DNA from: a virus
Strand: one strand, 5' to 3'
UHGV virus genome: UHGV-0183032
DNA: 16,673 bases
Positions 6,968 through 14,905 of the stretch are shown one piece after another. The position numbers and the translations under genes are program-made. The notes under the pieces were generated by a model, which saw only the letters and a list, made by a program, of their open reading frames with translations, did not search any database and had not been told where the DNA came from. The number at the start of each line of letters is the position of its first letter. The stretch's first letter is position 1.

Positions 6968-7438
6968 TTATTCTTTGCGTATGCACTGCGTTTTGATGTA
7001 GTCCTGTAATCCGGTGATCTTCGCGTCTTTCTCTTTTAGTTGTTCTCTGAGGGATAGATAATTTGATTGAGCACTGGCAGTAAGTCTACAGGTGGCTCCA
7101 TTAATGCTGCTGGCGGTTCCGGTGGCGTCGTGCACGTACACTGGCTCGGCGTTGACGTGCAACCTGATAGCACCGCTATCAATGCCAGCGCGAAGATCGG
7201 CAATGTCAGATCTGATAGCTTTAATCTCATCGTGATACCTCTTATCAAGTTTTGACAGTTCGGCGTTTCGCTCCTTCATCTGCTGGATAGTGTTACTTGC
7301 TGTTTTTAGTGCGCCTTTCGTCACCGTGACTTCTTCCTGTAACCTTGCCGCCTCACCCTGGTAATAACACGTTACGGCGGTAAGCCCGGCAATAATGCAA
7401 ACAACAACGGCGATGATTAACGTCTTCACCTTGTCCAT
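6968..7438 (-). CDS. Rz: Rz-like i-spanin (inner-membrane spanin subunit)
   Basis: 156 aa with an N-terminal TM helix ([16 protein letters not shown]) and coiled-coil periplasmic domain. Follows the endolysin and contains an embedded +1-frame lipoprotein ORF. Confidence 0.85.
7036..7230 (-). CDS. Rz1: Rz1-like o-spanin (outer-membrane lipoprotein), embedded in Rz
   Basis: 64 aa from ATG 7230 ([24 protein letters not shown]...); lipobox LSGC; Pro-rich mature part. Wholly inside Rz in another frame. The track start at 7248 is TTG. Confidence 0.8.
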   Translation of the reverse strand: MRLKLSDLTLPIFALALIAVLSGCTSTPSQCTCTTPPEPPAALMEPPVDLLPVLNQIIYPSENN

Positions 7439-7917
7439 GTTTCACCCCATTCGCAAACGGCATATTCAACATCACGGCGGTTAATTAACCCTTGCCACTG
7501 CTTACCACCAGCATATATCCAGCGTTTAAGCTGTGCGCACGCCTCCGATTTCTTGCCGTCATTGAGTAGCTTCAATAATGTTGATGTTTTGAAGTTGGTA
7601 GCGCCTACGTTATAGGCGAATGAATAAAGCGCCGCGCGGGTAAAATCTGATATTTCGACTTTAATATATGGGTCAATCGCTTTTGCGGTTTTGTGGAGAT
7701 CTTTGTTTAACAAAGCATCGCATTCTGATTGCGTGTAAGTTTTACCCAGCATAATGTCTTTTCCGGTGTGACCATAACATACAGTCCATACACCGATAGC
7801 ATCACGATACGGATCGTACTCCACGCCTTCTAATGGTTTAACCATCACAGCCGCAATAGCGATCGCCCCGCCAGCCGCCGCAGCAATAATCTTGTTTTTC
7901 AGCGATTGGCTAATCAT
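7426..7917 (-). CDS. SAR endolysin (T4/P21-type lysozyme, GH24) with N-terminal signal-anchor-release domain
   Basis: 163 aa. Gly/Ala-rich weakly hydrophobic N-terminus ([18 protein letters not shown]), then [23 protein letters not shown], which is closely similar to the phage 21 R21 lysozyme as recalled. Confidence 0.9.
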
Positions 7918-8118
7918 TTACTTATTCCCCATTCGCGCGTCGTGTTCCTCTTGCGCTCGCTTGTTCTCCTGTGATTTGAAGTAATAGTTAACGGCAAATG
8001 TGCCTACGGTTGATAAGATACCCACAAAGACGGCAATGTCATTGATGGTTATCGCGCCGAAAAAAGCAGTTACGGCCCCAGTCACATACGCGCACGCCTC
8101 CCGTATTTTGTCGAACAT
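7918..8118 (-). CDS. Holin, two-TM class II (pinholin-like)
   Basis: 66 aa with two hydrophobic helices and a charged C-terminus (KSQENKRAQEEHDARMGNK). Immediately upstream of the SAR endolysin; GGAGG 7 nt before ATG 8118. Confidence 0.8.
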   Translation of the reverse strand: MFDKIREACAYVTGAVTAFFGAITINDIAVFVGILSTVGTFAVNYYFKSQENKRAQEEHDARMGNK

Positions 8119-8130
8119 AGATTTTCCTCC

Positions 8131-8160
8131 AACAAAGCAAAAACCCGGCGCGGGGCCGGG
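8131..8160 (-). terminator. Intrinsic terminator on the minus strand, directly upstream of the holin RBS (tR'-like)
   Basis: Minus strand reads CCCGGC-cccgc-GCCGGG followed by TTTTTGCTTTGTT: 6-bp GC stem, 5-nt loop, U-tract. About 13 nt separate it from the holin RBS. Confidence 0.6.
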
Positions 8161-8188
8161 TAATTACAATTTCGCATTGTTAGGAAAT

Positions 8189-8217
8189 ATTTTAATCTGT
8201 TTGTTTACGCCCTACAA
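8189..8217 (-). promoter_or_regulatory. Candidate sigma70-type promoter (late promoter P_R'-like) upstream of the terminator
   Basis: Minus strand TTGTAG, 17-nt spacer, TAAAAT; would give a roughly 50-nt leader ending at the hairpin. The -35 element is weak. Confidence 0.3.
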
Positions 8218-8224
8218 ATACGGC

Positions 8225-8401
8225 TTACGGCTTTCTATATATCAGGCCGTTATCAAGCAACATTTGCATATGCCGCCGATCCATGTCGCTTGATTCCCAA
8301 TGTGGATCGTCATCAGGTCTTATCATCACCTTATTACCTTTAAGTAAATAGACGATGTTAAATACCTTATGCAAATAGATACCATCTTCGATCTCGTTCA
8401 T
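8225..8401 (-). CDS. Hypothetical small protein, 58 aa (MNEIEDGIYLHKV...)
   Basis: Found by hand, codons verified. ATG 8401 overlaps the stop of the upstream ORF (ATGA). N-terminus IEDGIY resembles its upstream neighbour. Confidence 0.5.
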   Translation of the reverse strand: MNEIEDGIYLHKVFNIVYLLKGNKVMIRPDDDPHWESSDMDRRHMQMLLDNGLIYRKP

Positions 8402-8577
8402 AGGTCGCTAACCCTCACCAGTTCACCAGCATCAAGAAATATTTTAATTGTTTCTCGCGTCGTCTTAATGATTGGCGCTACCCACTCACCACCGCCAACG
8501 CGGATGCGAATATCATCACCTTCTACGCGGTAAAACAGCCCGTCTACTACTGTTGCGTACACCCCATCTTCAATCAT
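8398..8577 (-). CDS. Hypothetical small protein, 59 aa (MIEDGVYATVVDGLFYRVEGDD...)
   Basis: Found by hand, codons verified. AGGAG 8 nt before ATG 8577, which overlaps the stop of the upstream membrane ORF (ATGA). Confidence 0.55.
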   Translation of the reverse strand: MIEDGVYATVVDGLFYRVEGDDIRIRVGGGEWVAPIIKTTRETIKIFLDAGELVRVSDL

Positions 8578-8771
8578 TTCTTGCGCTCCTTAATAGCTCG
8601 ATTGATCTGCCCTGCCGTAGCGTCGAAGAAAGCGATAAACACAGTCACAGGCCAAAAAGGAATCTCAAGGCCGCCAGGTTCAGCTCCGCTAAACTTAATA
8701 AAACAAGACATCAGGATAGCGCCAGCGATATAAAGCAAAACAATCACAGCTATAAGGCATTCAATCATCAT
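8574..8771 (-). CDS. Small membrane protein, about 65 aa with two predicted TM helices
   Basis: ATG-ATG at 8771/8768 overlaps the stop of the upstream acidic ORF; GAGGG upstream. Helices IECLIAVIVLLYIAGAILMSCF and IPFWPVTVFIAFF. The track's longer form (start 8861) overlaps the upstream gene and is rejected. Confidence 0.55.
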   Translation of the reverse strand: MMIECLIAVIVLLYIAGAILMSCFIKFSGAEPGGLEIPFWPVTVFIAFFDATAGQINRAIKERKK

Positions 8772-9012
8772 CGCCCTCGTCTTCATGTTCAGCCAGGAAA
8801 TCATCAACGGCACGGTAAGTAACTGGAGGGATGTATTCGAAATCATCAGAATCAAGATCAAGCGTCCTGCTGTCGCCGTCGTCGTCCATCGTATTCATCC
8901 CTAACTCACCGAAAGGGCCGTACCCAATGTGGCCCAGGTATTCGCAACCAATCGTAAACCCAGGGTATTCGCCTTTACACCGGATCTTGTAAGGTTTATT
9001 TGATGCGCTCAA
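8761..9012 (-). CDS. Hypothetical protein with extremely acidic C-terminal half
   Basis: 83 aa from a TTG start at 9012 with strong GGAGGGGTGG RBS just upstream; alternative ATG at 8898 gives a 45-aa acidic peptide. C-terminal half is extremely acidic (DDDGDSRTLDLDSDDFEY...AEHEDEGDDD). Confidence 0.5.
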   Translation of the reverse strand: MSASNKPYKIRCKGEYPGFTIGCEYLGHIGYGPFGELGMNTMDDDGDSRTLDLDSDDFEYIPPVTYRAVDDFLAEHEDEGDDD

Positions 9013-9319
9013 TTTCCACCCCTCCGTTTTCGCCTTCAGTCACTTTGTATTCTGCCGCCAGTTCAGCGCCAAGCAATTCCACTTCCATATTAGCGATACC
9101 CTGGAACATCAGATAGGCAAAAACTAGGCTTTTAATTCTATCCGGGTCTTCAAGATGGTCTGCATTAAAAGGCGGTTCCGATACGTGGAAGCATTTAACA
9201 TGCGCATCGTCTTCAGTGGCTACACGGAAACATGCACTAGGTTGCCCGGCAAATTGTCCTAATCTTTCTTCGTTCGGTAAAGTGCCACGGAAAACTTTAA
9301 CGCTGATAAATTTAGACAT
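8996..9319 (-). CDS. Hypothetical protein, 107 aa
   Basis: ATG start verified; packed between neighbours in the island. Confidence 0.6.
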   Translation of the reverse strand: MSKFISVKVFRGTLPNEERLGQFAGQPSACFRVATEDDAHVKCFHVSEPPFNADHLEDPDRIKSLVFAYLMFQGIANMEVELLGAELAAEYKVTEGENGGVEIERIK

Positions 9320-9322
9320 TGT

Positions 9323-9577
9323 CTATTCTCCTTCGTAAAAAATAGCTACCAGTTCAGGATTGTTTAATGGGTTAGGGCAAGAATAAAAACCACTTCGCAA
9401 TAACCCCCTAAGCGCCTTTATTTTTCTGTGCACCGGGATTGACTCGCTTAAATAGAAATCATCTTTCCTTTTGTCATAAGGTAGCTCGTAAAACCTACCA
9501 TAATTTACGAATTGAACGACGCGGCAAAACTCACCGTCAGCCTTACTGTTGCCGCGCCATATTTTGATTATTTCCAT
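9323..9577 (-). CDS. Hypothetical protein, 84 aa
   Basis: ATG start verified; 3-nt gaps to both neighbours. Confidence 0.6.
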   Translation of the reverse strand: MEIIKIWRGNSKADGEFCRVVQFVNYGRFYELPYDKRKDDFYLSESIPVHRKIKALRGLLRSGFYSCPNPLNNPELVAIFYEGE

Positions 9578-9580
9578 AAA

Positions 9581-9880
9581 TTAAAACTCCGCACCAGGTA
9601 AGCTACGCGCTTTGTTTACCGTATCGTGCTTTAACAATAAACCAGCGTGATAATTCATAATCCCCATATTACCTACTGGTATTTCATCATTTTCTGCCTT
9701 TATTATTAACAACTGGTTTTTAGTGAAGATCCTGTCTCCATCAGTGATATATAACCAGTCGCCGCGCTTACCAACAACAACATGAGATCTGCCTAAGCTG
9801 TCTTTAAATTCATAATTACAGAAAACATCATCGTTAGGAACTTCAACAAAACAGCAAGCAATAAATTTAGCGCTTTTCAT
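9581..9880 (-). CDS. Hypothetical protein, 99 aa, possible distant member of the tandem small-protein family
   Basis: Start chosen at ATG 9880 (AAGGG 8 nt upstream); the track's ATG at 9910 lies inside a GC hairpin. Motif GDWLYITDGDRIF resembles the ITDDxGxLW motif of the 10.4-11.4 kb paralogs. Confidence 0.55.
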   Translation of the reverse strand: MKSAKFIACCFVEVPNDDVFCNYEFKDSLGRSHVVVGKRGDWLYITDGDRIFTKNQLLIIKAENDEIPVGNMGIMNYHAGLLLKHDTVNKARSLPGAEF

Positions 9881-9902
9881 GATTACACCCTTCTGATTTG
9901 AT

Positions 9903-9918
9903 GGGGCCATCCGGCCCC
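9903..9918. repeat. Perfect GC-rich hairpin (GGGGCC-atcc-GGCCCC) in a 43-bp intergenic gap
   Basis: 6-bp all-GC stem with 4-nt loop. A U-rich run follows on the plus strand (GTGTTTTAT), not the minus strand. Confidence 0.5.
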
Positions 9919-9923
9919 GTGTT

Positions 9924-10064
9924 TTATGCTTCTTCGTCTCCTTTAAACCCTAAGCACTCCGCGTACTCGTCAATGCTTAATGCTTCTTCACCTTGTGCCA
10001 GTAATTCAAAGTATCTTGCGTACAGTTCGAAAACCCAGGCCGGATATTTAGCGTTAGCGTTCAT
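9924..10064 (-). CDS. Hypothetical small protein, 46 aa (MNANAKYPAWVFELYARYFELLAQGEEALSIDEYAECLGFKGDEEA)
   Basis: Found by hand; GGGGG 6 nt before ATG 10064; fills the gap between neighbouring genes. Confidence 0.5.
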   Translation of the reverse strand: MNANAKYPAWVFELYARYFELLAQGEEALSIDEYAECLGFKGDEEA

Positions 10065-10074
10065 GGTTTCCCCC

Positions 10075-10353
10075 TTATGCCATACGTGCGAATTCAAGTG
10101 ATTTGCATTCGTAGTCTTCCTCTGCCTGTTCGATGACTGCCATCATCATTTCGTTTGCGTTGTTGAATGCGTTGCTTTGTGCGAACTTGTCGGCTCCACC
10201 TTCTTCTTCGAACTCCGCGTTGTTTGCTGCAATGTAGTGATATTCGATGTTGTTCAGGTAAGGGCTTGCAGCGTGTGCTGGGTCTTCTTTCTCCACCATC
10301 TCCCAAAATGCGTTTAAGCGAGATTCGACTTCTTTGTTAATCCAGCGTTTCAT
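10075..10353 (-). CDS. Hypothetical acidic protein, 92 aa; first gene after the predicted 10.4 kb promoter
   Basis: ATG 10353 with GGAGGG about 9 nt upstream; acidic composition (EFEEEGGAD, EQAEEDYE). Confidence 0.65.
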   Translation of the reverse strand: MKRWINKEVESRLNAFWEMVEKEDPAHAASPYLNNIEYHYIAANNAEFEEEGGADKFAQSNAFNNANEMMMAVIEQAEEDYECKSLEFARMA

Positions 10354-10388
10354 TTTTCTACCCTCCGCATCGTTCTCTCTTCAGCTTC

Positions 10389-10417
10389 TTTATAACAAAA
10401 TGGCACTGCCGAAACAA
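10389..10417 (-). promoter_or_regulatory. Candidate sigma70 promoter with extended -10 (minus strand)
   Basis: Minus strand TTGTTT, 17-nt spacer, TGt-TATAAA. Predicted start near 10382, about 30 nt before the RBS of the 10353 gene. Confidence 0.35.
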
Positions 10418-10425
10418 TGCCATTT
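10397..10425. repeat. Inverted repeat AAATGGCA-N12-TGCCATTT overlapping the candidate promoter (operator-like)
   Basis: Perfect 8-bp arms with 12-nt spacer. A GCCATTT-type motif recurs in the 16.4 kb and 6.8 kb gaps. Confidence 0.45.
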
Positions 10426-10434
10426 CGTAAACCT

Positions 10435-10450
10435 TGTGATACAGATCACA
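10435..10450. promoter_or_regulatory. Near-consensus CRP-type binding site (TGTGA-N6-TCACA)
   Basis: TGTGATACAGATCACA with flanking TT...TTT, matching the core of the Enterobacterial CRP consensus. Centred about 60 bp upstream of the predicted start. Confidence 0.4.
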
Positions 10451-10451
10451 T

Positions 10452-10676
10452 TTACGTTTCTTCCGTAAAAGTAACCTTCATCGCCCCATCCGAACTACGG
10501 ACAACATAACGACCAATACCGCCTAGCGGCCCTGCATACCATAAGTGACCGTAAGTGTCAGTCACGACGATAAACGGAAATTTAGGAGACAATCCCATCG
10601 GTTTTTCAGCCGTGTACTGTACGCCTTCCTCAAAACAGCCCAATTTCGATTCGTTACACGTTAAAATCATTTTCAT
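10452..10676 (-). CDS. Tandem small-protein family member D, 74 aa
   Basis: ATG 10676 overlaps the stop of member C (ATGA). Motif CFEEGVQY...IVVTDTYGHLWYAG. The track's longer Cys/Trp-rich form starts upstream and overlaps member C. Confidence 0.55.
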   Translation of the reverse strand: MKMILTCNESKLGCFEEGVQYTAEKPMGLSPKFPFIVVTDTYGHLWYAGPLGGIGRYVVRSSDGAMKVTFTEET

Positions 10677-10912
10677 ACCCCTACATACGAAAACGCAGCA
10701 AAAGCACCACCACCAGCACGCGCATAAACAAGCGCCGTGCCACAACCCATCTTATAAAATCGCCATAACTGCCCCTGGTCGTCAGTAATGGCATGAATAT
10801 ATTCCTGATCCTTTGCGTCAACCAATGCCGCGTCAACCTCGTAGATCTTGCCATTCTTAAAAAACGCGCTGCATCGTGAGTATGTGCACTGGTATCTATG
10901 TTTCCGATTCAT
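10673..10912 (-). CDS. Tandem small-protein family member C, 79 aa
   Basis: ATG 10912 with GAGGTG upstream. Motif FFKNGKIY...HAITDDQGQLWRFY; C-terminus GGGAFAAFSYVGV resembles member A. Confidence 0.6.
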   Translation of the reverse strand: MNRKHRYQCTYSRCSAFFKNGKIYEVDAALVDAKDQEYIHAITDDQGQLWRFYKMGCGTALVYARAGGGAFAAFSYVGV

Positions 10913-10922
10913 AGCACCTCAC

Positions 10923-11180
10923 TTATTCCGGTTTACTGCCTTCGCGGGCGCAAAACTCCGCGATCTCACGGAAATCATGCACTATGCGATAAATATACAA
11001 ACCAGCGGCGTTATTGATATGGCTAACATAAGCGAAATAAACTTTATCATCATCGCCAGTTATCGCCATTGCACCATCACCGCCCGGTGCGCCGTGGAGT
11101 TGAACGCCGCAATAGATCTTCCCTTCTTCAAAAATATTGCGGTCGCGCGTCTGCAATACCTCAAAATATAAATGTTTCAT
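10923..11180 (-). CDS. Tandem small-protein family member B, 85 aa
   Basis: ATG 11180 with GGGG 5 nt upstream (track start at 11216 is TTG). Motif IFEEGKIY...MAITGDDDKVYFAY. Confidence 0.6.
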   Translation of the reverse strand: MKHLYFEVLQTRDRNIFEEGKIYCGVQLHGAPGGDGAMAITGDDDKVYFAYVSHINNAAGLYIYRIVHDFREIAEFCAREGSKPE

Positions 11181-11190
11181 TGTTGCCCCT

Positions 11191-11403
11191 TTAATAACGT
11201 TCAAAGCTGGCAGCAAAACCTACACCGGATATTTCACCGCCTTCATAGCTCGGCCTGAATACCCATATTTCGTCATGATTATCAATCAAGGCAAGGCAAT
11301 TACTCATTGTGTGTGCTTCATTGCCATAAACGATGTGAACGTCATAAATACTCCCAATCGTGAAAACACTGTCATTGCTTGAGTATGAGCATTTAACTTG
11401 CAT
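11191..11403 (-). CDS. Tandem small-protein family member A, 70 aa
   Basis: ATG 11403 overlaps the upstream stop (TGATG). Motif VFTIGSIY...LALIDNHDEIWVF; C-terminus GVGFAASFERY. Confidence 0.6.
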   Translation of the reverse strand: MQVKCSYSSNDSVFTIGSIYDVHIVYGNEAHTMSNCLALIDNHDEIWVFRPSYEGGEISGVGFAASFERY

Positions 11404-11648
11404 CAGAAAACCCCTTTATAATCGACCGTGTATTTTGCTATCAGATTCCAGTCGCAGTAATTAAGCATGTCGCGAGGCTGCCAGCCTTTCATCCCGACCG
11501 CCCGCCGCGCAGCGTGACGGCGATAATCATCGTTATAGTCAGCTATGCACCACGGCTGGAGAACAAACATATAATTTGCTTCATTAACCAGGATAGCCAC
11601 CCGCTTTCCTGTTGCCTTGTCTTTTGCCCTGAAATAATTCACTTTCAT
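11403..11648 (-). CDS. Hypothetical protein, 81 aa
   Basis: ATG verified; overlaps the upstream gene by 4 nt. Confidence 0.6.
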   Translation of the reverse strand: MKVNYFRAKDKATGKRVAILVNEANYMFVLQPWCIADYNDDYRRHAARRAVGMKGWQPRDMLNYCDWNLIAKYTVDYKGVF

Positions 11649-11860
11649 TTTAATACCTCGTCGATCAGCATTTCTTCTTCCAGGTTAGCCGGACGTTTAC
11701 GGAATATCCCGGCAAAAACCAGGTCATCAAGTAGGTCTTTGCGTTTAAATAGCCACTCTTTCATTATTACCCCGTCATCGCTGCGATATACGACGCCGTT
11801 TTTCAAAAAATAAAAAGTGCTGGTATTTGTTTGAAGGTATAAATCTTCGTAAACGTCCAT
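11645..11860 (-). CDS. Hypothetical protein, 71 aa, with FLKNGVVY...W motif reminiscent of the tandem family
   Basis: ATG verified; motif FYFLKNGVVYRSDDGVIMKEWLF. Confidence 0.6.
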   Translation of the reverse strand: MDVYEDLYLQTNTSTFYFLKNGVVYRSDDGVIMKEWLFKRKDLLDDLVFAGIFRKRPANLEEEMLIDEVLK

Positions 11861-11864
11861 GATA

Positions 11865-12092
11865 TTAACCCTCGACTACTTGCAAGCCGCGCCCCTTATC
11901 GCCTACGAAGTCGCCCAGGCTAAACGTATATGACCACGCTGGGTTAATGTAGTAATCATCAGCACCGTGAGCGATAAGGTCTTTACCCAAAATGACGCAG
12001 GTCACATCATCAGAATGAACAACGTCTACCGTTTCCCTTACCGCGCGTTTTAATGATGGGTAGCCGTGATCGTGCAAGAATTTAACTTTCAT
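11865..12092 (-). CDS. Hypothetical protein, 75 aa
   Basis: ATG verified; 4-nt overlap with the upstream gene. Confidence 0.6.
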   Translation of the reverse strand: MKVKFLHDHGYPSLKRAVRETVDVVHSDDVTCVILGKDLIAHGADDYYINPAWSYTFSLGDFVGDKGRGLQVVEG

Positions 12093-12376
12093 ATTTCTTT
12101 CCCTTTATAAGTAACAGCATCAGCGATCAACAATACCGCCAGCAATTCACCGTCATGTAACGGGTCTGGAATAGCAAAAAATATGTCGCTGTTTTTGTCC
12201 GGCACTACTACGCGCATATTTCCCTGTTTGTCTTCATGCACGAACCACGGCTTTTCGTGTGGCTCAAACATGCCGAAAAGTAATTTAAGATCTATTTCTT
12301 CACCCTTCGTGAATAACGACACATCAGTTGTAGTGATAACTAACGCTTTCTGATCTGCTGTTTTCTTCGCTCTCAT
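12089..12376 (-). CDS. Hypothetical protein, 95 aa
   Basis: ATG verified; 4-nt overlap with the upstream gene. Confidence 0.6.
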   Translation of the reverse strand: MRAKKTADQKALVITTTDVSLFTKGEEIDLKLLFGMFEPHEKPWFVHEDKQGNMRVVVPDKNSDIFFAIPDPLHDGELLAVLLIADAVTYKGKEI

Positions 12377-12606
12377 TCCTCTGTCTCCCAGCGGTCTATG
12401 CTGATTAAAAAGTCCCGGATAGCGTGTCGCTCGTCGCGCGTCGGTTTACGCTTCCGGTAAATTTTGAAATCGAACCATTCTTTTTCTTGTTCGAAGTCCA
12501 GATCGTAAGCAAGCGCCTCGATATATCCGCAGTCGTGATACTGGTAAGCCACGCCAGCACGAACAAAAAAGCGGGTTTTATCCCGCTTGTGTTCATAGAT
12601 ACACAT
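12373..12606 (-). CDS. Hypothetical protein, about 77 aa
   Basis: Start chosen at ATG 12606 (GGGG upstream, no overlap with the upstream gene) rather than the track's ATG 12651, which overlaps by 35 nt and has GAAGG abutting the ATG. Confidence 0.5.
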   Translation of the reverse strand: MCIYEHKRDKTRFFVRAGVAYQYHDCGYIEALAYDLDFEQEKEWFDFKIYRKRKPTRDERHAIRDFLISIDRWETEE

Positions 12607-12616
12607 ATTTGCCCCA

Positions 12617-12847
12617 CTATGCAGTTGTGTAACTATCAACCAGCTTTTCATCCTTCATTCTGGAAAGCTGCATGATATTCATCGTGTAGCCGTTGTCAGA
12701 GAAAAGCCACTCCGCAGCCTTGCGACGAAAAACAATATCATCATGGTTACGTGTCCATGTAGCTATCACAACGCGTTTCCCGTTAGTGGCGAACATAGAT
12801 AACGCGTTATCAACTACGTCGATAGCCTGCCAGATTTTTAGTTCCAT
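12617..12847 (-). CDS. Hypothetical protein, 76 aa
   Basis: ATG verified. Confidence 0.55.
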   Translation of the reverse strand: MELKIWQAIDVVDNALSMFATNGKRVVIATWTRNHDDIVFRRKAAEWLFSDNGYTMNIMQLSRMKDEKLVDSYTTA

Positions 12848-13203
12848 GATTTATCTCCGTAGATTTTGAATAGTTCACACGCTTCCTGATTTTCAAGTAT
12901 ATTCATATGCAGGTCACGCAGGCGGCGCATTGTGCGGAATCGCGGTCTGAACTCCTGGCTACGTTTAATGTATTTGCCGCCAATTGAATAAATATGCCCG
13001 TATGCGTACCATCTGTTGCCTACCCATATATCATATTCTTTTCCTTCGTAATTAAATTTTATAGTTAGCTCGCCTACTTCAACTATTAACCCTTTATCAA
13101 TGATGTCATTAAGCATTTCGTCCCATTCTTTGAGGAATGGTTGCTGATAAAAACCAAAAAGCGTATTTGCAGCATGGCAAAGATAATCAATGATTATTTG
13201 CAT
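12838..13203 (-). CDS. Hypothetical protein, 121 aa
   Basis: ATG verified; largest ORF of the island. Confidence 0.65.
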   Translation of the reverse strand: MQIIIDYLCHAANTLFGFYQQPFLKEWDEMLNDIIDKGLIVEVGELTIKFNYEGKEYDIWVGNRWYAYGHIYSIGGKYIKRSQEFRPRFRTMRRLRDLHMNILENQEACELFKIYGDKSWN

Positions 13204-13207
13204 ATTA

Positions 13208-13420
13208 TCACCACATCATGTAATAAACGTTCTCGTCAGCTAATGCGTCCGCTACATCCTGCGTCATGTGCCTGGCTTCAAGGAAAAAATCCTCATCATG
13301 CCATTCACTAACAAGCATACGCGCCCATTTACGGCGGCGGCGCTTATTGTGTCGTAGATCATCAAAAGTCATTAATGCTTTGTCATATGCCCTTACAAGG
13401 CGTTTACGGTTACTTTTCAT
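13208..13420 (-). CDS. Hypothetical basic protein, about 70 aa
   Basis: Start chosen at ATG 13420 (AAGGTGG 8 nt upstream; ATGA overlap with the upstream stop); the track start at 13444 is TTG. Arg/Lys-rich (NKRRRRKWAR). Confidence 0.55.
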   Translation of the reverse strand: MKSNRKRLVRAYDKALMTFDDLRHNKRRRRKWARMLVSEWHDEDFFLEARHMTQDVADALADENVYYMMW

Positions 13421-13725
13421 TGCTCGACCCACCTTAACATCCAATTCACATCACATTTAATTGCGAATACTCTCACCGGATCAGTGCCGAATAATGGATG
13501 TGTGATAGTTTTCACTTCGTACCCAAAATAAGGAAGGTTAATAATCCTGTGTTTTTCGTGGTTGGCAGGGTATCCCCATTTAATAATCAGGCGCTCATAT
13601 TCCCGCCCTTCCAGACGTTTACGCCAATAGTCATTATAAAGCCGGTATTCCTCCACCTTCTTTCCCGCCCGGATAGCGTGGAAATATTCCCCTTTCAGAT
13701 TCAAATGCAGGTCTTTACTTGCCAT
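13417..13725 (-). CDS. Possible ASCH/PUA-like fold protein, about 102 aa
   Basis: Start chosen at ATG 13725 (AGGA 8 nt upstream); the track start at 13761 is TTG. N-terminus LHLNLKGEYFHAIRAGKKVEEYRL resembles the ASCH/DUF3850 signature from memory. Confidence 0.5.
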   Translation of the reverse strand: MASKDLHLNLKGEYFHAIRAGKKVEEYRLYNDYWRKRLEGREYERLIIKWGYPANHEKHRIINLPYFGYEVKTITHPLFGTDPVRVFAIKCDVNWMLRWVEQ

Positions 13726-13990
13726 CGCTATGATCCTGTAAACAGTCGTTATAGCCTTCAATATATCCGGTTAATCCGGTATTACTCACTGACCATTCAG
13801 CAGAACGGCGCTTGATGGCCTCGTCCATCGTGATTTCACCTTTGCGATGACATCCGGTATCAATGTAACGGTTGACAACTGAAGATAACCGCCCGCGTAG
13901 CTGTTGTGTTCCGGCGTAATGACGGGCCGTTTCCGTCAGATCGTTAACCAACTGGCGGTAAATATGCTCTTTTAATTTAGGCTTCATCAT
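13715..13990 (-). CDS. Hypothetical protein, about 91 aa
   Basis: ATG-ATG at 13990/13987 with GGTGA upstream; the track start at 13999 is GTG. Confidence 0.55.
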   Translation of the reverse strand: MMKPKLKEHIYRQLVNDLTETARHYAGTQQLRGRLSSVVNRYIDTGCHRKGEITMDEAIKRRSAEWSVSNTGLTGYIEGYNDCLQDHSDGK

Positions 13991-14177
13991 CGTCACCACG
14001 CTTGTAAATTTTTACAGGCTTAATAGGGATGGCGGGCAATTCGCCTTCATTTAACGCGCTTGCCATACCCAATATTAAGCGTGCTTCAGCACCAGTGACC
14101 TTCTTACACCATGCGCCGCCTGTTTTATCTTCGAATAAGATAACGGCAAACTGATCGTTTATTTCCAGCTTATCCAT
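13977..14177 (-). CDS. Hypothetical protein, 66 aa
   Basis: ATG 14177 lies 1 nt from the stop of the Q-like gene. Confidence 0.6.
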   Translation of the reverse strand: MDKLEINDQFAVILFEDKTGGAWCKKVTGAEARLILGMASALNEGELPAIPIKPVKIYKRGDDDEA

Positions 14178-14905
14178 TATTCACCCCGTGTCACTCGTTT
14201 GATTTCGCTTTCCGCGCGGGCCTCTTCTTTGAATAGCTCCGCTATGGCGTCTTCATAGAAAACCCGGTATTTCTTCCACCATGTTGATCGGCTTACCGGA
14301 AAAACAAGCTGATTAACCGCCTGCCGGACGAGATCTACCGGGAAACGCGAGTACCCACGCCCGCCGCAATGCTGGCACGTTTTGAATACTGGCATTTCCG
14401 CCGCTTCGCTGGCTGCTTTATCCGGTACTTCGCCACGGCCCTTACACCGCTGGCAATGGTTTTTAACGTAGCCTTTGCCGCCGCACCGTGCGCAAATTGT
14501 TGATGTGTATTTGCAATATGGATTTGGTAAATGCCCGTGACCGCCGCACTTAGGGCAAACTTTTTCGGTCGCTGCACTCTGGCAGTAATCCCGAAACGCG
14601 AAAACGGAAACAAGAATAATAAGATCATTGCGTTGTGCCTCGTTTAACTCCATCACGTATTCGTAATCTTTCGCCATAGCCCTTAAACGCTCTGTAAGCA
14701 AAACTACGGCCCTGTGTTTTTCGGCTTGTGATAGTTCCATCTTCCCTAAAAAAGCGCTATATCCAAGCTCTACGCGCGATTGCGCCATACCCGCAGCGGT
14801 TAGCGCATCCGTCGTATTAAGAGCGTCCGGGGACGTGCCCCGGCTTTCGTCAGATAATCGCGGTGATTTAGGAAAGTGGAATTTTAGAATGGATTCTAAA
14901 TTCAT
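14177..14905 (-). CDS. Putative late-gene antitermination protein Q-like, with four DnaJ-type CxxCxGxG zinc-finger repeats
   Basis: 242 aa with CPKCGGHG, CARCGGKG, CQRCKGRG and CQHCGGRG. Sits after the nin/RusA module, where lambdoid phages carry Q. Family assignment is from memory of Q-type proteins of enterobacterial prophages. Confidence 0.5.
   Translation of the reverse strand: MNLESILKFHFPKSPRLSDESRGTSPDALNTTDALTAAGMAQSRVELGYSAFLGKMELSQAEKHRAVVLLTERLRAMAKDYEYVMELNEAQRNDLIILVSVFAFRDYCQSAATEKVCPKCGGHGHLPNPYCKYTSTICARCGGKGYVKNHCQRCKGRGEVPDKAASEAAEMPVFKTCQHCGGRGYSRFPVDLVRQAVNQLVFPVSRSTWWKKYRVFYEDAIAELFKEEARAESEIKRVTRGE

Follow-up and report, generated by a model that had tools for sequence, protein, structure and literature searches.

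Four adjacent minus-strand genes of a temperate coliphage, here called A to D, are in our view best read, with somewhat better than even confidence, as an old array of paralogs encoding small beta-barrel, protein-binding accessory proteins that are made during lytic growth and maintained under purifying selection. The window, by which we mean the whole stretch of 16,673 nucleotides that was analyzed (UHGV-0183032), is that of a mEp021-like (mEpimmI) temperate coliphage or prophage, a member of a phage group that reportedly occurs commonly in the human gut. All six open reading frames singled out in the first-pass annotation (A to D, as well as 9581-9880 and 11645-11860, here E and F) are present on the minus strand. 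A to D, each with a Shine-Dalgarno-like sequence upstream, are real genes encoding cytoplasmic proteins of ~70-85 aa. The array and its upstream landmark are as follows:

11191..11403, minus strand: gene A, 70 aa; first array member in the window and a core family member
10923..11180, minus strand: gene B, 85 aa; probable family member, less certain
10673..10912, minus strand: gene C, 79 aa; core family member and the protein that was modelled
10452..10676, minus strand: gene D, 74 aa, or 72 aa from the second ATG (10670); last array member, well supported
14177..14905, minus strand: Q antiterminator gene (Pfam PF03589 Antiterm, E = 9e-30), labelled Q in relatives

The slot occupied by the array is a variable block with the Q gene on one side, forming its upstream bound, and the lysis genes on the other, which bears out the initial description of tandem paralogs in a phage accessory region. 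Rfam and tRNA scans of the window returned no matches.

A to D very probably constitute one old paralogous family. A and C are clearly related, as their Smith-Waterman comparison (z = 7.5) was the top score of 253 pairs drawn from the 23 genes between 8398 and 14177, hhalign gave the pair a probability of 94%, and both matched phrog_31142 (PHROGs v4) over most of their length (E = 8e-5 for A and 8e-7 for C), a family to which B and D had no match at E <= 0.01. The pairwise scores of D and B (z of 4.4 and 3.7) were not significant after correction for 253 pairs. Because the shuffled Smith-Waterman comparisons supported only the A-C pair, profiles were needed for the other two. Against a profile of A, C and their relatives, D aligned end to end over 67 columns (P = 9e-5, probability 60%) and B over 43 columns (P = 1e-3, probability 20%). 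The alignment by eye in the first-pass annotation is therefore solid for A and C; by profile comparison, the placement of D in the A/C family is well supported and that of B moderately so, while pairwise comparison carries neither.

The insignificant pairwise scores and hhalign probabilities of just 20% and 60% would also fit a situation in which A and C are the sole true paralogs, with B, possibly D, and two outlying candidates (described below) sharing beta-hairpin motifs by convergence. The motif itself lends this some weight: in an exhaustive scan, DxxGxxW also matched the blades of beta-propeller, BNR and Reg_prop repeat proteins, and it is therefore a common hairpin motif. Long multi-stretch matches to beta-propeller and other repeat proteins were accordingly rejected as homologues, as the hairpin motif alone was matched, and A to D had no match to the Pfam families BNR, Reg_prop and NHL. 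We nevertheless consider convergence quite unlikely. None of 200 column-shuffled controls reached the observed score for either D (z = 9.0) or B (z = 6.7), all 22 control gene families (21 from the Q-holin block plus the holin) scored P >= 0.1 against the A/C profile, and the B and D matches are collinear across 43-67 columns, which is larger than the motif. Moreover, a fifth type, known from relatives, aligns collinearly with A, C and D, and six residues of this alignment are invariant (C9, F18, G21, Y24, D44 and F74 in C numbering). D possesses all of them, including the N-terminal Cys and the C-terminal Phe. The Gly-rich C-termini previously noted in two of the proteins stand as a shared feature, because A and C align there, up to the invariant Phe. 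For B, further arguments against convergence are its constant position between A and C in a census of ten related phages and prophages, and predicted strand positions that mirror those of C, although its own structural model is unreliable.

As proteins, the paralogs are 17-31% identical, and in a DNA repeat search their genes shared only motif-sized matches of 14-17 nt and were otherwise dissimilar. Scans of A to D and their neighbors against Pfam, NCBIfam and PADLOC gave no family match; with the PADLOC-DB 2.0 HMMs, A to D and four neighboring small proteins had no match at E <= 1. Searching PDB sequences with a profile produced no meaningful match; RpfR and titin scored best, at E > 0.1. The earlier statement that no family could be assigned thus holds, the only match being to an unannotated PHROG, and that for A and C alone.

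The grouping of six proteins proposed at first survives for A to D and fails for E and F. Their supposed weaker echoes of the signature were no better than shuffled controls: profile P was 0.15 for E (9581-9880) and 0.10 for F (11645-11860), z was 1.1 for both, and 25 and 27 of 200 shuffles, respectively, scored at least as high as the observed sequence. Two other genes are weak candidates for membership on sequence grounds:

12089..12376, minus strand: weak candidate for a distant family member, 95 aa; three other genes lie between it and the array
8761..9012, minus strand: weak candidate, 83 aa, with a TTG start and the RBS GGAGGGG ahead of the TTG

The first of these aligned in register with the A/C profile over 43 columns (hhalign P = 2.4e-3, probability 12%) and had a column-shuffle z of 5.6 (0/200). 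The second scored lower (hhalign P = 7.7e-3; z = 4.3, 1/200) and carries both motifs in its N-terminal half (KIRC..FTIGCEY..MDDDGD), its C-terminal half being an acidic tail; the part preceding the ATG is conserved as protein in five phages. A natural chimera, P0060, consists of a family member fused to this gene at a common MDD motif.

The family is dispensable, and copy number, a comparison that the first-pass annotation had suggested, ranges from 0 to 5 with constant gene order among the ten phages and prophages in the census. There is no copy in mEp021, while in some relatives, including MagusPhagus, the fifth type sits upstream of A. In a search of 5.8 billion proteins, all matches were proteins of E. 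coli phages or prophages. When 1.84 billion representatives were scanned exhaustively with HMMER, one further divergent member was added, in the same genomic slot, and there were no relatives outside E. coli mEpimmI-type phages. The family is thus restricted to temperate coliphages of the mEp021-like (mEpimmI) group, prophages included. Orthologues of each type are under purifying selection: pairwise dN/dS was 0.05-0.25 for every type, apart from two higher values of 0.49-0.52, one of them derived from just three substitutions. Alleles of A gave 0.09-0.49, and each of the two allelic types of D, which are 58% identical to one another, gave 0.07-0.17. Variation takes the form of gene presence or absence and of discrete allelic types, not of measurable gene-wide diversifying selection. 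The tandem paralogs had been described as diversifying, as is typical of genes in an arms race. In the sense of an ongoing arms race this reading is not supported, as gene-wide positive selection was not seen and the low protein identity implies that the paralogs are old.

To consider what these proteins might look like, we used AlphaFold2 (AF2), which gave useful confidence for C only (pLDDT 79, six strands); as the alignment behind this model included A and D, it is not independent evidence for the fold of D. The model of B (pLDDT 47.6) is unreliable and does not find Gp54, the structural match discussed here, even though its strand positions mirror those in C. C is predicted to fold into a small beta-barrel of six strands in which a long loop joins strands 1 and 2, a rare arrangement that it shares with Gp54 from Escherichia phage Bas11 (PDB 9AXB; Pfam PF25180, “Phage antiviral trigger protein Gp54”), whose own six-stranded barrel has a prominent strand 1-2 loop and a topology that was termed very rare (PMC11578894). 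Mapped onto the C model, FxxGxxY would span the junction from the long loop into strand 2, DxxGxxW would form the strand 3-4 hairpin, and the C-terminal Phe would lie in strand 6, so that the signature appears to be structural. Differences between paralogs and alleles seem to fall mostly in the loop between strands 2 and 3 and in the strands that follow; those among A alleles cluster at residues 29-36 and 42-46. In BFVD, the same fold occurs in many uncharacterized proteins of 63-90 aa from enterobacterial siphophages. SH3-like small beta-barrels scored far below the Gp54 match and have five strands, in contrast to the six strands and long strand 1-2 loop of the C fold. There is no corresponding link in sequence: A, B, C, D and three relatives had no match to PF25180 at E <= 10, where Gp54 of Bas11 itself scores 116 bits, alignment of the family with the Gp54 homologues gave an hhalign probability of 0.2% (P = 0.35), and comparison with the single Gp54 sequence likewise found nothing. 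The model therefore points to the Gp54 fold being adopted, in another and temperate group of phages, by a family that is unrelated to Gp54 in sequence.

Two non-coding elements bear on when these genes might be expressed:

8119..8224, minus strand: near-invariant intergenic region with a -10-like GATTAAAAT, a ~27 nt spacer, a terminator and the holin RBS
10380..10450, minus strand: conserved non-coding element that closes the array; a TGTGA-N6-TCACA palindrome, a long hairpin and then a U-run (terminator-like)

The first element is almost invariant in seven phages, compared with ~85% identity for the flanking genes, and a terminator scan placed a strong intrinsic terminator at 8143-8161, followed by the holin RBS. 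It is a putative late promoter/terminator unit, with conservation as the basis for the promoter role; the -35 element is poor, and the site is absent from the list of a consensus promoter scan. The second element is kept in six phages whichever gene precedes it (D, the other D allele, or A), folds as RNA at -25.4 kcal/mol (z = -4.3), and corresponds in mEp044, mEp010 and mEp554 to an annotated ARNold terminator. Because the stop codon of Q and the start of the gene after it overlap, and because of the near-invariant -10-like box and terminator before the holin, we propose a lytic, delayed-early timing: A to D would be made in lytic growth, probably as delayed-early proteins, by transcription reading on through Q.

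Several features would also suit prophage-expressed morons made in the lysogen, where they might serve the host or exclude other phages. The array lies in a flexible part of a temperate phage genome, it ends in the conserved terminator-like element with a CRP-like palindrome ahead of the terminator, and all bacterial copies that were found are prophage copies. We regard this as very unlikely, however, as a scan found no sigma-70-like promoter on the coding strand upstream of A, and the array genes belong to an end-to-end run of genes that leads back to Q. In addition, neither a signal peptide nor a membrane segment is visible in the A to D sequences, which sets them apart from the lipoprotein exclusion factors that have been described for mEpimmI-type phages (PMC11893012), and none of them has a PADLOC match. 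A role as minor virion or assembly components is hardly credible and is rejected because mEp021, whose virion was analyzed, has no family copy; phages whose structural modules are syntenic also carry anywhere from 0 to 5 copies, the array is located upstream of the lysis genes and not within the structural module, and F is unrelated to the family.

Returning to lytic accessory proteins as the preferred reading, A to D are probably small accessory proteins that bind host or defense proteins. For the anti-defense or host-targeting role suggested at first, the match of the predicted C fold to Gp54 is one indirect lead. Each paralog would be a small protein-binding module for a different host or defense protein, and the set may act as host-takeover or anti-defense factors, or possibly as defense triggers in the way that Gp54 is for CapRelSJ46. 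A bolder version, which we put forward tentatively and consider rather unlikely, is that the array is a cassette of immune-interface proteins in which each barrel paralog neutralizes, or is sensed by, a different defense sensor, with gain and loss of copies determining on which E. coli hosts an mEpimmI phage can grow. If this were true, phages would use the six-stranded Gp54-like barrel as a general fold to engage host immunity, and it would not be a one-off trigger of CapRel. Few small phage proteins are known to be recognized directly by an immune sensor of bacteria, Gp54 of Bas11 being one of them, and A, B, C and D, together with the fifth type of MagusPhagus, make up a compact candidate set for defense triggers or inhibitors. 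The sequenced mEp phages also provide a natural presence/absence series for asking what role the Gp54-like fold plays. Even if the proposal is wrong, about five groups of “hypothetical proteins” gain a family and a fold assignment, and it is itself unusual for a family with a Gp54-like fold to occur as an array that varies in size and reaches five paralogs.

Among known systems, a close comparison is with Gp54 itself, which triggers the CapRelSJ46 defense, is non-essential, and has no known function of its own (PMC11578894). It is dispensable and cytoplasmic, as is the family, and at 66 aa it is slightly smaller than the 70-85 aa proteins described here. When the sequences are read by eye, without a statistic attached, FKKG immediately precedes strand 2 of Gp54 and SGLTW falls in its strand 3-4 region, at the places where the family has FxxG and DxxGxxW. 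The two differ in their carriers, Bas11 being a virulent T1-like member of the Drexlerviridae with one gp54 gene by annotation, whereas the family occurs in temperate mEpimmI phages as tandem arrays of up to five paralogs. Activation of CapRelSJ46 is not a property of Gp54 relatives in general, because close homologues from four other phages fail to activate it (PMC11578894).

The hairpin motif of Asp-box/BNR and beta-propeller blades is similar to the second signature, (I/L)xDDxGxxW, and the family profile matches several such blades, with the similarity limited to 20-30 profile positions; unlike those proteins, A to D have one copy of the motif each and no propeller. The entry for phrog_31142 carries no annotation and mentions neither tandem paralogy nor a fold. 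In their genomic setting, the genes recall the accessory blocks of lambdoid phages, such as the nin region of lambda upstream of Q and the moron blocks of Stx phages between Q and the lysis genes, which contain small accessory genes. Like these, the array block is a tight run of small, dispensable genes adjoining Q whose content varies between close relatives. It differs in that it appears to occupy ~6 kb between Q and the apparent late promoter/terminator unit, not a site downstream of that unit, and in that it contains a multi-copy paralogous family.

This sequence comes from a temperate phage or prophage of E. coli that belongs to the mEp021-like (mEpimmI) group. Its 9000-12500 region is 83-86% identical to MagusPhagus, mEp044, mEp010, mEp013, mEp554, mEp021, and mEp515, and no match was found in the phage collection beyond these seven phages. 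The four-gene stretch at 10440-11410 occurs with 100% identity in a prophage of E. coli MS 21-1 (NZ_CP146670.1); only 19 of 5,426 complete E. coli genomes have any match to it, and nine of the 5,426 carry most of it, chromosomally in all nine. The minus strand is the coding strand for all genes of this region, which run in the following order:

14177-14905, minus strand, Q antiterminator (Pfam PF03589)
14177 down to 8225, minus strand, about 25 tightly packed small ORFs between Q and the holin
7918-8118, minus strand, holin (annotation in relatives)
7426-7917, minus strand, endolysin (annotation in relatives)
6968-7438, minus strand, spanin (annotation in relatives)
after the lysis genes in coding-strand order, minus strand, terminase genes

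In a comparison of 48 mEpimmI genomes, flexible genes were found to cluster in variable regions, and paralogs in the Q-lysis block were not mentioned (PMC11893012). The first-pass annotation had proposed that six small ORFs of this block are related through an FxxGxIY and (I/L)TDDxGxLW signature, four of them in a tandem array and two as weaker echoes, and all six are present at these coordinates:

11191-11403, minus strand, array gene A
10923-11180, minus strand, array gene B
10673-10912, minus strand, array gene C
10452-10676, minus strand, array gene D
9581-9880, minus strand, echo E
11645-11860, minus strand, echo F

In Smith-Waterman comparisons of all 253 pairs among the 23 genes of 8398-14177, each with 200 shuffles, A-C was the top pair (z = 7.5), and the scores of C-D (z = 4.4), C-B (3.7), and C-F (3.9) were within the chance range for 253 pairs. 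Independently of this test, both A and C match phrog_31142. We also built profiles from the Q-to-lysis regions of six relatives by sorting ORFs into orthologue sets and comparing the sets using hhalign. A and C matched with 94% probability and were joined by a 94-aa MagusPhagus protein (L001:5104-5388) and a 78-aa mEp044 protein (L003:9821-10057). A combined profile of these four types was then compared with all other tested gene families from these loci, all of which belong to the Q-holin block except for the holin and a small gene upstream of Q. D aligned with it end to end (P = 9e-5, 67 columns), followed by B (P = 1e-3, 43 columns) and the ORF at 12089-12376 (P = 2.4e-3); the 22 other families all had P >= 0.1, including E (0.15) and F (0.10). 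When the alignment columns of each family were shuffled 200 times, no shuffle reached the observed score for D (z = 9.0), B (z = 6.7), or 12089-12376 (z = 5.6), one did for the gene at 8761-9012 (z = 4.3), and 25 and 27 did for E and F, respectively (z = 1.1 for both). A MAFFT alignment showed A, C, D, and the MagusPhagus type to be collinear, with C9, F18, G21, Y24, D44, and F74 (C numbering) invariant. The C-terminal Phe (F74) is a third shared position that had not been listed before, and the Gly-rich C-termini that had been noted in A and C do align, immediately ahead of it. On the basis of these pairwise, profile, shuffle, and alignment tests, sequence comparison makes A and C certain members of the family, D a well-supported one, and B a probable one, and we rejected E and F. 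The proposed relationship thus survives for the core of four, which score above shuffled controls (B being only probable), but not for the two echoes. A rival explanation is that B and D resemble the family by convergence. F has an orthologue in all seven phages compared; the one in mEp021 (mEp021_41, L002:4593-4841) is annotated as a "virion structural protein" despite its position in the run of small accessory genes before the lysis cassette.

Each array gene is preceded by a Shine-Dalgarno-like sequence, and dN/dS is 0.05-0.25 in orthologue pairs of every type, with three exceptions: two A-allele pairs (0.49) and one A-variant pair with only three substitutions. Array genes are therefore protein-coding and constrained. 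Paralogs are only 17-31% identical in protein and resemble one another in DNA only in motif-sized matches of 14-17 nt; the duplications behind them are old.

A census of ten phages and prophages with type-specific HMMs took up the copy-number comparison that had been suggested, and the number of copies ranged from 0 to 5: none in mEp021, one in mEp554, two in mEp013 (the second fused to another gene), three each in mEp010, mEp044 (which has a further, displaced copy upstream of Q), E. coli MLI107, and E. coli STEC308, four in the window, and five each in MagusPhagus and E. coli 09-00049. The order of types was constant, namely a fifth type, A, B, C, and D. The displaced mEp044 copy is the 78-aa protein, whose gene lies outside the array, flanked by the RusA gene and by the small gene preceding Q. 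Several ORFs are chimeric, with an array gene fused either to another array gene or to a neighbor. Gene 60 of mEp013 (L005:4910-5206) starts as the N-terminus of C and switches at a GGG stretch to the C-terminus of the 8398-8577 gene, the database protein P0060 joins the fifth type to the 8761-9012 gene at a common MDD motif, and P0066, P0068, and P0020 each fuse an array type either to a second array type or to the tail of the 8996-9319 gene. These ORFs are natural products of deletions within the block, and since several such proteins are in the database, deletions of this kind are frequent.

When 5.8 billion clustered proteins were searched with the family profile, ~70 matched, and those with named organisms were all from E. 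coli or E. coli phages, except for two MAG entries listed as Caudoviricetes sp. One further divergent small protein (P0084) came from an exhaustive HMMER scan of 1.84 billion representatives; its gene occupies the same genomic slot in another phage of mEpimmI type. The remaining significant matches were to long repeat proteins, in each of which the DxxGxxW part of the profile aligned with several short segments; three of eight checked have beta-propeller-type Pfam repeats (BNR, Reg_prop, NHL, SGL), and the other five have unrelated repeat domains (e.g. HYR, SpaA) or no Pfam match. We rejected these as homologues and take the similarity to be a common hairpin motif.

The Q stop codon overlaps the start of the next gene, and genes are packed onward down to 8225. 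The 106-bp gap ahead of the holin (8119-8224, minus strand) contains a -10-like GATTAAAAT, a spacer of ~27 nt, a strong terminator (8143-8161), and the holin ribosome-binding site, and it hardly varies among seven phages that differ by ~15% in coding DNA. It looks like a putative Q-dependent late promoter with its terminator; a consensus promoter scan did not list the GATTAAAAT site, and its -35 element is weak. Compared with lambda, the position of this putative unit, ~6 kb downstream of Q, is unusual. With a late promoter here, all of the small-gene block would lie upstream of the late operon and would be reached by transcription reading through from the early right operon. A rival reading is that the array genes are prophage-expressed morons. 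The array is closed by a conserved element of ~75 nt (10380-10450, minus strand), in which a TGTGA-N6-TCACA palindrome (TGTGATCTGTATCACA) that fits the CRP consensus is followed by a 15-bp hairpin and U-run (fold z-score -4.3). This element is kept in six phages after any last array gene, be it D, the other D allele, or A. Directly after the array is an acidic 92-aa ORF (10075-10353, minus strand) for which no family was found and which has no counterpart in the seven sequenced phages compared; E. coli MLI107 shares its upstream leader and first bases and has an annotated 90-aa gene at that position (DNA match only). A GC-rich hairpin, GGGGCC-N4-GGCCCC (9901-9920), between the 9924-10097 ORF and E has a T-run on the plus strand and none on the coding strand, and is thus terminator-like on the non-coding strand. 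A second, unrelated pair of tandem paralogs of 58 and 59 aa (8225-8401 and 8398-8577, minus strand) has a common IEDG(I/V)Y...GDxVxI...LDNG pattern (hhalign 96% probability) and no family in family-database scans. Residues 17-46 of the 121-aa product of 12838-13203 resemble the C-terminal half of the 8398-8577 protein over 30 columns (hhalign 38% probability, P = 3e-4), and the two may have a common short helical module.

AlphaFold2 modeled C from a 15-sequence family alignment (pLDDT 79.2, pTM 0.69) with six predicted strands (5-12, 23-29, 39-43, 49-54, 59-63, and 70-78). The model places FxxG at the end of the long loop, Y24 within strand 2, and F74 within strand 6, with DxxGxxW making up the hairpin of strands 3 and 4. 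The predicted fold matches Gp54 of phage Bas11 (PDB 9AXB), whose barrel has six strands and a prominent loop between strands 1 and 2 (PMC11578894). Gp54 is a non-essential 66-aa protein whose own function is unknown; it binds and activates the CapRelSJ46 toxin-antitoxin defence, G24 and I25 being contact and escape positions, and the authors of that structure speculate that it may inhibit a different defence (PMC11578894). By Foldseek against BFVD, many uncharacterised proteins of enterobacterial siphophages, 63-90 aa long, have the same fold, with TM-scores up to 0.86 and marginal E-values.

On the best-supported reading, the array genes are a tandem family that mEpimmI phages alone carry and can dispense with, and they encode small Gp54-like beta-barrels. 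Each paralog would be a small module that binds a particular protein of the host or of a defence system, because the predicted fold of C matches Gp54, which uses its barrel core and long loop to bind an immune sensor, because the proteins are small and cytoplasmic in character (no signal peptide or membrane segment is visible in their sequences), because array genes vary in presence and absence, and because allele differences concentrate in the strand 2-3 loop and strand 3-4 turn of the predicted fold. An unlikely alternative is that they are virion components. The host- or defence-directed role first suggested is a plausible candidate, but its "diversifying" element is not supported, as every orthologue set is under purifying selection, which counts against an active arms race. 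In sequence the family is new; its predicted fold is rare and was described only recently, and its multi-copy arrangement is unusual. No Pfam match to PF25180, the Gp54 family, was found for the array proteins, and hhalign gave P = 0.6 and 0.35, leaving the resemblance without statistical support in sequence; by eye, Gp54 has FKKG and SGLTW where the array family has FxxG and DxxGxxW.
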